In this document: positions 53,321-54,709 of the stretch, in pieces
How the letters are laid out: every line of letters begins with the position of its first letter
How positions within the stretch are numbered: the stretch's first letter is position 1
Assembly: GCA_035763885.1 (NCBI GenBank)
Contig: DASUAH010000034.1
Span: 104-64,103, forward strand
Length of the DNA: 64,000 nt
Direction: 5' to 3'
Source of the DNA: Gemmatimonadales bacterium
GTDB lineage: Bacteria; Gemmatimonadota; Gemmatimonadetes; Gemmatimonadales; GWC2-71-9
Translations under genes and position numbers: made by a program
The notes under the pieces: generated by a model
What the model was told of the DNA's origin: nothing
Seen by the model: only the letters and a program-made list of their open reading frames with translations
The model's database searches: none

Positions 53321-54709
53321 TCAAGTGGGGCGCTTGAGCTGGGCCAGCATCTCCTGCACCCGGGTGAATTTCTCCCGGGGCTTGCTCCGGGGTTCCCCCC
53401 GCTCGATCTCGGCTCGGTCGATGACCAGCCAGTCGTTCCAGCTCACCGGACCGTGGTTCTCGGCCCCGCGGGCGAGGACCAACCCGTCCGCCCCCGGTTT
53501 GGGGACGGAATCGAGGCCCGGAAGGTCTGCCAGCAGGGTCTTCACCGTGGCCACGCCATCGGCCCGGTTCGTCCCGATGATGCCGGTGGGACCGCGCTTG
53601 ATCCAGCCCGCCGCGTACAGCCCCGGGATGGCGGCTCCACTCGGCTCGACGATCCGTCCGTCGCGTGACGGGAAGACGCCCTGCCGGGCGTCGAAGGGTA
53701 CGCCCGGAATCGCCACCCCCCGGTACCCGATGCTGCGGAACAGGATTCCGCAGGGCTGCTCGATGTGCTCGCCGGTGCCCCGCGCGCTCTGCTGGAACGG
53801 CGGCCCCTCCAGCCGGTTGCGCTCGAACACCACGCGCTCCATGTGATCCCCTCCCTTCAGCTCCACCGGGCTTAGCAGGAACCGCAGGAAGATCCGCCGC
53901 GGGCAGCCGCGGCTCGGCCGGGAGACGAAGCCCTGCAGCACCTCGATGTTCTTCTTGGCGGTGGACCCGGCGCGCTCCTCCAGCTCCGCGAGGCTCTCCG
54001 GATTGAGCGCGAGATCGGCGGGGTCCACCACCGGCTCGCACTCGCTCAGCTCTCCCAGCTCCCGGAACTCCTTGGTGGTGAACTTCGCCTGCGCGGGTCC
54101 TCGGCGGCCCACCAGGTGAATCTCGCGGATACGGCTCTCGGCCAGGGCCTCGAGCGCGTGCTCGGTGATGTCGGTGTGCTTGAGCTCGTCCACGGTCTTC
54201 GCGAGGATCCTGCAGACGTCGATCGCCACGTTCCCCTGCCCGATGATGACGGCCACCTCCCGGCTCAGGTCGAACTGCCGGTCCCGGTAGTCGGGGTGCC
54301 CATTGTACCAGCCGACGAACTCGGTCGCCGTGTAGCTGCCGGGCAGGTCCTCTCCCGGAATCCCCAGGCGGCGGTCGCTTTCGGCGCCACAGCAGAACAC
54401 CACGGCGTGGTACGCCCGGCGCAGGTCCTCCACGGTCACATCGCGGCCGACGCTGACATTCCCCAGGAACCGGAAGCCGGGTGTGCGGGCGATGCCCTCG
54501 TACACCCGGATTGCTTCCTTGAGCTTGGCGTGATCCGGGGCTACGCCGTGGCGTACGAGTCCGAACGGGGCGGGGAGCCGCTCGAACATGTCCACGAGCA
54601 CGGTGGCGTCAGAGCGGAACAGGGCCTCCGCTGCGTAGAAGCCACTGGGGCCCGACCCCACGATCGCTACGCGGAGGGGGTTCTCCGCCGTGCCGAGGTT
54701 CTGAGTCAT
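53321..54709 (-). CDS. NADPH:ferredoxin/adrenodoxin-reductase-type flavoprotein (FprA family)
   Basis: 462 aa from ATG 54709 (ATGA overlap with the ftr-2 stop). LRVAIVGSGPSGFYAAEAL, PFGLVRHGVAPDH, VIGQGNVAIDVCRIL, HLVGRRGPAQAKFT and GWIKRGPTGIIGTN closely parallel mycobacterial FprA. Confidence 0.9.
   Translation of the reverse strand: MTQNLGTAENPLRVAIVGSGPSGFYAAEALFRSDATVLVDMFERLPAPFGLVRHGVAPDHAKLKEAIRVYEGIARTPGFRFLGNVSVGRDVTVEDLRRAYHAVVFCCGAESDRRLGIPGEDLPGSYTATEFVGWYNGHPDYRDRQFDLSREVAVIIGQGNVAIDVCRILAKTVDELKHTDITEHALEALAESRIREIHLVGRRGPAQAKFTTKEFRELGELSECEPVVDPADLALNPESLAELEERAGSTAKKNIEVLQGFVSRPSRGCPRRIFLRFLLSPVELKGGDHMERVVFERNRLEGPPFQQSARGTGEHIEQPCGILFRSIGYRGVAIPGVPFDARQGVFPSRDGRIVEPSGAAIPGLYAAGWIKRGPTGIIGTNRADGVATVKTLLADLPGLDSVPKPGADGLVLARGAENHGPVSWNDWLVIDRAEIERGEPRSKPREKFTRVQEMLAQLKRPT

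Follow-up and report, generated by a model that had tools for sequence, protein, structure and literature searches.

The 64,000-nt stretch of DNA analysed here (the window) belongs to a Gemmatimonadales bacterium (GenBank assembly GCA_035763885.1, contig DASUAH010000034.1, positions 104 to 64,103; G+C 71%). It carries on its minus strand an operon in which the genes of a redox-type formylmethanofuran dehydrogenase (Fwd) stand together with those of a formyltransferase/hydrolase complex (Fhc) and with fprA, a gene for a flavin adenine dinucleotide (FAD) enzyme of the FprA/adrenodoxin reductase (AdR) type. The functional linkage of this FprA with the fwd genes is strongly supported, and we give a probability of about 60% to the reading that FprA was enlisted to couple a redox-active bacterial FwdABCD plus the formyltransferase Ftr to nicotinamide, by way of a ferredoxin to NADP+. 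The operon comprises, in the direction of transcription:

57334 to 58626, minus strand: fhcB-like gene, coding for the formyltransferase/hydrolase scaffold subunit (TIGR03129 301.6 bits, below the cutoff of 327.8)
55608 to 57269, minus strand: fhcA, amidohydrolase subunit A, copy 2 (TIGR03121 757 bits; Pfam Amidohydro_3)
54706 to 55602, minus strand: fhcD-type formyltransferase gene, ftr copy 2 (TIGR03119 436 bits; no earlier in-frame start than ATG 55602)
53321 to 54709, minus strand: fprA, FprA/AdR-type FAD enzyme, predicted NADP(H):ferredoxin oxidoreductase (PDB 1lqt, 1cjc; Pfam Pyr_redox_2)
53269 to 53320, minus strand: fprA-fwdD spacer of 52 nt, without consensus terminator or promoter
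52891 to 53268, minus strand: fwdD, molybdopterin-dinucleotide-binding cap domain (Pfam Molydop_binding 46.8 bits; NF042908 FwdD 62.9 bits, below cutoff)
51545 to 52894, minus strand: fwdB, catalytic subunit with Mo or W bound by two pyranopterin guanine dinucleotides (Mo/W-bisPGD) (TIGR03129 491 bits; PDB 8rja_B E=1e-112, 5t5i_B E=9.6e-109)
49843 to 51525, minus strand: fwdA, amidohydrolase subunit A, copy 1 (TIGR03121 690.7 bits; NF042911 563.8 bits)
49016 to 49846, minus strand: fwdC proper, GXGXG subunit (TIGR03122 249.6 bits; best PDB matches are methanogen Fmd/FwdC)
48161 to 48976, minus strand: fhcC-type GXGXG subunit (best PDB match 6s6y_C, Methylorubrum extorquens FhcC, E=1.6e-46)
47222 to 48133, minus strand: ftr copy 1, Fwd-associated formyltransferase (TIGR03119 430.6 bits)
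46239 to 47225, minus strand: mch, methenyl-tetrahydromethanopterin cyclohydrolase (TIGR03120 411 bits)
45446 to 46237, minus strand: tandem EthD gene directly after mch (two EthD domains, TIGR02118; 263 aa)

The fprA reading frame has 462 codons and an ATG start. Where it follows fhcD the plus strand reads tcat (54706-54709), an ATGA overlap of the fprA start (54709-54707) with the ftr stop (54708-54706), and start/stop overlaps are also found at fwdD/fwdB (ATGA), fwdA/fwdC (GTGA) and ftr/mch (ATGA), four junctions altogether. At its other end the fprA stop (53321-53323) and the fwdD ATG (53268-53266) leave the spacer of 52 nt, and a consensus scan of 45-60 kb found no terminator-like site on the minus strand. 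Both the overlap and the distance to fwdD given in the original prediction, a reading of the DNA that preceded this work, proved exact. That prediction also placed fprA at the junction of a hydrolase-type and a dehydrogenase-type gene set; the gene does lie between fhcD and fwdD, and the arrangement can be refined, since the operon contains two C-type (GXGXG) genes. The one at 49016-49846 is the true fwdC (56-72% identity to FwdC of fwd clusters) and the one at 48161-48976 is of the FhcC type (39-41% identity to gammaproteobacterial FhcC versus 32-36% to their FwdC). With the true fwdC located between fwdA and fhcC, the five-gene block fprA-fwdD-fwdB-fwdA-fwdC, headed by fprA, is nested between fhcB-fhcA-fhcD and fhcC. 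The two formyltransferases divide in the same manner: ftr copy 2 is 60% identical to the Fhc-set Ftr of locus L010 versus 54% to the Fwd-set Ftr, and ftr copy 1 shares 75-77% identity with the one Ftr encoded at L004 and L084, Gemmatimonadales loci that have fwd only (L numbers designate loci of relatives).

On sequence grounds the product of fprA is a member of the FprA/AdR family, with all defining features of that level in place. A PDB search matched it end to end with Mycobacterium tuberculosis FprA (1lqt; E=1.7e-115, query 11-455 against chain 3-451) and with bovine adrenodoxin reductase (1cjc; E=7.5e-108), and its identity to M. tuberculosis FprA is 46.5% over 458 residues. The five motifs quoted earlier (GSGPSGFYAA, RHGVAPDH, GQGNVAIDV, VGRRGPAQAKFT and GWIKRGPTGIIGTN) all occur in the reading frame, and together with the full-length match they bear out the claimed collinearity of the 462-aa protein with mycobacterial FprA. 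The FAD GxGxxG motif (VGSGPSGFYAA) and the NADP Rossmann motif (IGQGNVAIDV) align with those of FprA, and VGRRGP, GVAPDH and FRELG are in the PDB alignment the conserved equivalents of FprA Arg199/Arg200, His57 and Glu214, the position of His57 being fixed by the H57Q mutant chain 2c7g; in FprA, R199/R200 serve the NADP 2'-phosphate and H57 and E214 are catalytic. Curated libraries returned Pyr_redox_2 (Pfam) and sub-threshold partial matches to glutamate-synthase small-subunit models, of which the GltD-type NCBIfam models cover residues ~8-217 only, with scores far under their cutoffs. A Cys-motif scan of the reading frame found no Fe-S cluster motif, which sets the protein apart from relatives of the GltD/NfnB type. 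In the window and in relatives FprA stays at 462-465 aa and has acquired no further domain. The protein is predicted to exchange electrons with a ferredoxin in an NADP(H)-dependent manner.

The dehydrogenase encoded beside it carries the sequence features of a redox-active Fwd, except for the polyferredoxin subunits of methanogens. Methanogen Fwd leads from the FwdA amidohydrolase site through an internal formate tunnel to the FwdBD Mo/W-pterin and from there via the FwdB [4Fe-4S] cluster to FwdG/F. Aligned to 5t5i_B and 8rja_B, the window FwdB retains the [4Fe-4S] motif (CTFCGCVCDD..ACVLG), the Cys-His pair (SVCHGPS) and the Arg (PVRGH), and x-V-C-H-G-P-S/T was found in 118/118 FwdB proteins of related loci; FwdB is thus sequence-competent for redox catalysis. 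The FwdD cap domain, the FwdA amidohydrolase and the FwdC GXGXG subunit are all encoded, and tungsten-specific NCBIfam exception models scored below their cutoffs on this dehydrogenase. A motif of the FwdF/FwdG type, CxxCxxCxxxC(P), was present in no coding-like open reading frame (ORF) of the window, and as encoded the bacterial complex is a catalytic core without the electron wire. The Fhc-type set next to it consists of A, C and D subunits and a B subunit that has lost the catalytic residues of the pterin site: against 5t5i_B it reads NSPAVLRN in place of SVCHGPS and PLGGS in place of PMRGH, so that the Cys-His pair and the Arg are gone. This FhcB-like protein retains the N-terminal CxxCxxxC...C motif (CPFCGLTCDD...NGCPIS), as do 40/41 FhcB-like proteins of related loci (L009-L042, L100-L161), unlike M. 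extorquens FhcB, which is reported to lack it (PMC6926001).

The association of fprA with fwd genes was followed in an FprA-based sample (one genome per GTDB species, best 80 loci, annotated by tblastn with window proteins) and a FwdB-based sample (best 80 metagenome contigs). fwd/fhc genes adjoin fprA in 40/53 loci whose FprA is at least 57.5% identical to that of the window, 33 of the 40 including FwdB, and the remaining unlinked loci among these 53 are mostly on truncated contigs; below 57.5% identity (50-57%) the count is 0/27. Starting from FwdB, fprA is adjacent in 34 of the 80 contigs and absent from 6 that are informative on both sides, 40 being too short, which amounts to 34/40 informative contigs; starting from FdxA, the 7Fe ferredoxin described below, fdxA-fprA abuts fwdDBA-ftr-fwdC on 2/2 long circular contigs of metagenome-assembled genomes (MAGs). 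Conserved linkage in other genomes, the absence of which had been named in advance as the outcome that would speak against the prediction, was found from all three starting points. The adjacency is kept in two gene orders, fdxA-fprA-fwdDBA... and fwdDBA-ftr-fwdC-fdxA-fprA(-fhcBADC), with same-strand median gaps of 45 nt for fdxA-fprA (n=78), 74 nt for fwdC-fdxA (n=53) and 56 nt for fprA-fwdD (n=25). A protein that appeared to fuse FprA with FwdD (P0045, 520 aa, Pfam Molydop_binding; L001 4420-9174) is probably an artefact of a frameshifted assembly or gene call, since FwdB and FwdA are each split in L001 and FprA and FwdD align as separate high-scoring segment pairs.

A neighbour-joining tree of FprA, rooted on M. 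tuberculosis FprA and without bootstrap support, places all linked proteins in one clade made up of Gemmatimonadales and of alpha-, beta- and gammaproteobacterial MAGs; the window FprA lies inside it and other Gemmatimonadales FprAs (L065, L071, L076, L081) lie outside. Since the linked FprA of Gemmatimonadales groups with proteobacterial ones and not with other FprAs of its own order, co-transfer of fprA with fwd fits these data. The module can be delimited as an fprA of the linked clade on the same strand as, and within ~100 nt of, fwdD or fwdC-fdxA, with a 101-aa fdxA directly upstream of fprA; the window has the first of these features, at 52 nt, and lacks the second.

It could be argued that fprA and fdxA are general redox genes whose position next to fwd has no particular functional meaning. 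FprA homologues are indeed very numerous (at least 8000 scored candidates), the fdxA-fprA pair occurs away from fwd in L005, L006, L012, L051, L052 and L058, L002 has a sulfate-assimilation cluster on its other side, and some fwd operons lack the pair. Chance neighbourhood is nevertheless very unlikely in view of the 40/53 versus 0/27 split by FprA clade, the linkage in 34/40 informative FwdB-selected contigs, the persistence of the adjacency across four bacterial classes or phyla, in both gene orders and at distances of tens of nucleotides, and the clustering of fwd-linked Gemmatimonadales FprA with its fwd-linked proteobacterial counterparts.

The relatives also indicate how electrons could pass between the two enzymes. 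Most of them carry, directly upstream of fprA, a gene for a 101-aa 7Fe ferredoxin of the FdxA type (26/29 judgeable FwdB-selected loci; 48/53 GTDB loci with FprA at least 57.5% identical), with the pattern Cx2Cx4Cx3CP ... Cx2Cx2Cx3CP and the Pfam domains Fer4 and DUF3470; the best NCBIfam model, FdxA_Protbact, gives 109 bits, below its 135-bit cutoff. Two loci possess an additional gene for a 7Fe ferredoxin resembling Azotobacter FdI directly upstream of fwdD (L137 4951-5250; L144 6314-6613), in L144 on top of an fdxA-fprA pair downstream of fwdC. The original prediction had noted that neither FwdF/G nor a ferredoxin gene was visible in the window, and this holds. With the relatives' FdxA as query, tblastn against the window gave a best E of only 0.067, and six-frame scans of the 64 kb for 2Fe, 3Fe/4Fe, 7Fe and rubredoxin Cys motifs found no ferredoxin-like coding ORF. 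The same two approaches revealed no ferredoxin concealed in the 52-nt spacer or in the rest of the window, and a small Cys-rich ORF at 5698-5952, considered as a candidate, encodes a YggX Fe(2+)-trafficking protein.

fdxA is not adjacent to fprA in the window, L084, L085, L095, L098 and L103. These loci are interleaved with fdxA-bearing ones in the FprA tree, where L084 is sister to L004/L001 (fdxA present), and FprA has gained no extra domain, which makes relocation of fdxA likelier than a changed mechanism. It is therefore more likely that the sub-lineage of the window lost the adjacency through what looks like gene relocation, and the ferredoxin of this organism is presumably encoded away from fprA. 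As fdxA lies upstream of fprA in most relatives, a chain Fwd -> FdxA -> FprA -> NADP+ is likely rather than direct docking, and mediation by a ferredoxin between Fwd and FprA is probable. The claim that this flavoprotein is the electron outlet of the bacterial Fwd stands in so far as conserved synteny ties FprA functionally to Fwd, and a direct outlet is unlikely given fdxA upstream in 26/29 and 48/53 loci.

Docking would mean that FprA binds to Fwd and takes electrons from the FwdB [4Fe-4S] cluster straight onto its FAD, in a six-subunit NADP+-reducing Fwd, at least in fdxA-less Gemmatimonadales. This arrangement, in which an AdR-type flavoprotein would for the first time form an integral part of a Mo/W enzyme and an Fwd would for the first time be linked to NADP, is suggested by the window, L084, L095, L098 and L103, where fprA stands beside fwdD without fdxA although upstream sequence is available, by L085, which has the fhcD-fprA junction too on a contig that ends before fwdD, and by the overlap of the fprA start with the preceding stop at 52 nt from fwdD. 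AdR-type enzymes, on the other hand, have no Fe-S cluster and normally work with a diffusible ferredoxin. Together with the interleaving of fdxA-less and fdxA-bearing loci and its look of relocation, the constant 462-465 aa of FprA with no added domain, and the close relatives that lack fprA at this locus, which argue against an obligate subunit, this makes docking quite unlikely.

Under the preferred reading, recruitment of FprA as the nicotinamide-coupling partner of Fwd via a ferredoxin, Ftr would transfer the formyl group from formyl-tetrahydromethanopterin (formyl-H4MPT) to methanofuran (MFR) or methylofuran, FwdA would hydrolyse the formyl carrier and the FwdBD Mo/W-pterin would oxidise formate to CO2. 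The two electrons would exit FwdB at its lone N-terminal [4Fe-4S] cluster and pass to a small ferredoxin of the FdxA type (7Fe; 3Fe-4S + 4Fe-4S), which FprA would reoxidise with reduction of NADP+ to NADPH; the net reaction would be formyl-MFR + NADP+ + H2O -> CO2 + MFR + NADPH. The NADP+/NADPH couple lies at -0.32 V, and the [3Fe-4S] couples of 7Fe ferredoxins are near -0.4 V, which would make the step from ferredoxin to NADP+ downhill. E0' of the CO2/formyl-MFR couple is about -0.53 V (PMC11656701). From ~ -0.53 V versus -0.32 V we calculate ΔG0' of about -40 kJ/mol, at which the oxidation would be effectively irreversible, and the argument of the original prediction that oxidation to NADPH is exergonic and the reverse is not is sound. 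NADPH-driven operation in the reductive, CO2-fixing direction was ruled out at about +40 kJ/mol, FprA having no bifurcating architecture. FprA and 7Fe FdxA exchange electrons in vitro (PMC6208970). We infer from gene order that electrons are exchanged among the three proteins in the proposed direction and with a ferredoxin as mediator in this organism.

The opposite direction of flow has to be considered as well. FprA, together with a ferredoxin, might supply electrons from NADPH, either for reductive activation or repair of the Mo/W-pterin or Fe-S centres of an Fwd exposed to oxygen or for dihydromethanopterin reduction or methanofuran biosynthesis. Characterised FprA/AdR enzymes do donate electrons from NADPH to ferredoxin (PMC6208970), the operon lies within an island rich in H4MPT/methanofuran biosynthesis genes (MfnB, ATP-grasp/RimK ligases, CitG-like, HisA/F-like, AA-kinase, PabAB and DUF447), and in L084 fprA is divergent from such genes. 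The fdxA-fprA pair, however, abuts the structural fwd genes, directly before fwdD or directly after fwdC, and not the biosynthesis genes, and this position survives rearrangement. Moreover, no biosynthetic enzyme of the Fe-S or radical-SAM type that would require a ferredoxin was seen in the window. Additionally, an Acidiferrobacterales MAG (L087, the same locus as L005; 6197-11598) has fdxA-fprA directly upstream of a three-gene 2-oxoacid:ferredoxin oxidoreductase (domains Fer4_21, POR_N/PFOR_II and TPP_enzyme_C), as would be expected of an electron sink for strongly reducing enzymes more than of a biosynthetic function. A supply role is for these reasons unlikely. The fwd and 2-oxoacid contexts together suggest that the pair couples low-potential enzymes to NADP in general: it behaves as a portable unit that accompanies ferredoxin-dependent oxidoreductases of very low potential in bacteria other than strict anaerobes.

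Several observations weigh against recruitment of FprA as the NADP coupler of Fwd. The main mechanistic caveat is that characterised AdR/FprA enzymes physiologically pass electrons from NADPH to ferredoxin and have FAD potentials somewhat above NADP+/NADPH. As no ferredoxin gene occurs in the window, a middle carrier has to be supposed for this organism. The samples of relatives are the best 80 matches by similarity to window proteins and no unbiased survey, the tree has no bootstrap values, and all carriers of the fwd-linked module in the samples are MAGs or metagenome contigs. L101, L104 and L105 have fhcD followed by fwdD without fprA or fdxA although their flanks are available, and L100, L106-L109 and L117 probably have the same arrangement without fprA. 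FwdB in the fprA-less relatives is 81-85% identical to that of the window, and their operon is otherwise the same fused fhcBAD-fwdDBAC-fhcC-ftr-mch, from which it follows that fprA was gained or lost precisely at the fhcD/fwdD point within a narrow lineage. Neither fprA nor fdxA is within reach in L114 and L149, and L152 (10001-17822) has fdxA but, in the place of fprA before fhcB, an AT-rich gap of ~1.3 kb without ORFs. The pair lies away from fwd in L005/L087, L006, L012, L051, L052 and L058, and in L056 it is beside fhc only, with no fwd within 10 kb; fdxA-fprA is consequently not exclusive to Fwd. FprA thus often adjoins fwd but can be missing there, and it looks more like a soluble redox partner, whose gene may lie elsewhere, than like an obligate structural subunit. 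As to L152 itself, its G+C is low (46%) and its fwdB genes stand in tandem duplicate.

Several known systems resemble parts of this one. M. tuberculosis FprA and mitochondrial adrenodoxin reductase (1lqt, 1cjc) share with the window protein the fold, length, motifs and key residues, along with the 46.5% identity to FprA. Their electrons run from NADPH to P450s or other acceptors, whereas here the partner by synteny is a very low-potential CO2-forming dehydrogenase and flow is expected to be reversed, from ferredoxin to NADP+. Known FprA/AdR enzymes partner with small ferredoxins including 7Fe FdxA (PMC6208970), and here FdxA is implied by the synteny of relatives. The archaeal FwdABCDFG/FmdABCDFG complexes (5t5i, 8rja) have the same FwdA, B, C and D, with FwdB catalytic motifs kept (8rja_B E=1e-112). 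They differ in having the polyferredoxin FwdF and FwdG, for which the Cys-motif scan found no counterpart in the window; in relatives of the window the Fe-S wire appears to be replaced by a free 7Fe ferredoxin and an NADP(H) flavoprotein. The host also differs from archaeal Fwd hosts, being a Gemmatimonadales bacterium that bears a pyrroloquinoline quinone (PQQ) methanol dehydrogenase.

In function, the system that comes nearest is the F420-reducing Fwd of Ca. Ethanoperedens thermophilum (Lemaire et al. 2024, PMC11493965). Both systems would share the concept of a flavoprotein that couples formyl-MFR oxidation to a hydride carrier at -0.32 to -0.34 V, with the resulting thermodynamic pull on the oxidative pathway (PMC11656701). 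In Ethanoperedens this flavoprotein is a reductase of F420, FrhB-like, which has Fe-S clusters of its own and is attached to the complex through Fe-S bridges, whereas that of the window is of the Pyr_redox_2/AdR type, not FrhB-like and free of cluster motifs, with NADP+ as the predicted acceptor and a diffusible ferredoxin as a probable intermediary. M. extorquens Fhc (6s6y; PMC6926001) is comparable to the Fhc-type set of the window (fhcB-like, fhcA, fhcD, fhcC) and to its H4MPT/methylofuran context; it carries out no redox reaction, sets formate free and can do without an electron acceptor, in contrast to the fprA-linked set with its FwdD and catalytic FwdB. Mo/W formate dehydrogenases that are linked to NAD(P)H and have GltD-like FAD subunits or domains (8oh5_C, 9bov_A) likewise combine a Mo/W-bisPGD subunit with a pyridine-nucleotide flavoprotein of the same broad superfamily, and FprA residues ~12-200 match chains of this type in the PDB search at E 1e-10 to 1e-11. 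In those enzymes the flavoprotein is fused or tightly bound and has its own Fe-S clusters; FprA has none, and the substrate here would be a carrier-bound formyl group.

The original prediction regarded such a module as seemingly undescribed, and we likewise found no description of an FdxA/FprA-Fwd module, and no link between FprA-type enzymes and Fwd, in the literature searched, which did not cover subscription journals. In that literature Fhc is the sole methanofuran-dependent bacterial enzyme that has been characterised biochemically, and it is redox-dead and releases formate (PMC6926001). Bacterial FwdB homologues have been noted without partners (PMC10100899), MAG-encoded bacterial fwd has been read as 'formaldehyde to formate' (bioRxiv 10.1101/2023.11.21.568154), and the supplement of a preprint on Alphaproteobacteria of oxygen-deficient zones contains fwd transcripts and no ferredoxin or reductase entries. 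A 2016 survey reported fwdD to be absent from Proteobacteria (PMC5020050). Contrary to that survey, many gamma-, beta- and alphaproteobacterial MAGs or contigs (L007-L049, L110-L167) carry fwdD and a fwdB with the catalytic Cys, and it seems that the spread of redox-type Fwd among bacteria has been underestimated. In dozens of uncultured members of the Gammaproteobacteria, Betaproteobacteria, Alphaproteobacteria and Gemmatimonadales a complete catalytic-Cys FwdABCD travels with a 7Fe ferredoxin and an NADPH-ferredoxin reductase, and an FdxA/FprA-linked bacterial Fwd, widespread in uncultured lineages, is apparently new to description. If the proposed function is correct, aerobic or microaerobic methylotrophs and thioautotroph-like bacteria would be able to convert formyl-MFR directly and irreversibly to CO2, bypassing free formate and gaining NADPH. 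FprA with FdxA would represent a third kind of electron partner of Fwd, after polyferredoxin/Hdr and F420, and AdR-type reductases would acquire a physiological role from ferredoxin to NADP+. The system of six or seven genes would then also have a simple NADPH read-out and be suited to the heterologous study of Fwd.

The operon is surrounded by a methylotrophy island (window 26420-36424, 42623-45419 and 58635-63945) that includes a dehydrogenase of the PQQ methanol/ethanol family (30128-32275) with beta-propeller and binding-protein partners. The island also encodes PabA/PabB-like, DUF447, AA-kinase, HisA/F-like and CitG-like proteins, three ATP-grasp/RimK ligases, a hydantoinase_A-like protein and MfnB. 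The tandem-EthD protein after mch has a hydrophobic, signal-peptide-like N-terminus and homologues only in L004, L101, L104, L105 and L108; it was considered as a redox accessory by comparison with the EthABCD ferredoxin-reductase/ferredoxin systems and rejected on account of its occurrence in a few close relatives only and of that N-terminus. In one locus only, of an alphaproteobacterial MAG (L002 11779-17482), genes for sulfate assimilation (CysN/C, PAPS reductase-like protein, sulfite reductase) come after fwd-fdxA-fprA on the other strand. The FprA-type gene fpr2 of Corynebacterium is reported to be linked to a cluster of the sulfate-assimilation type (PMC1266029). Finally, a large HAMP-GAF-GGDEF-EAL signalling protein (window 39466-42600, plus strand), with no evident link to fprA, borders the C1 island.

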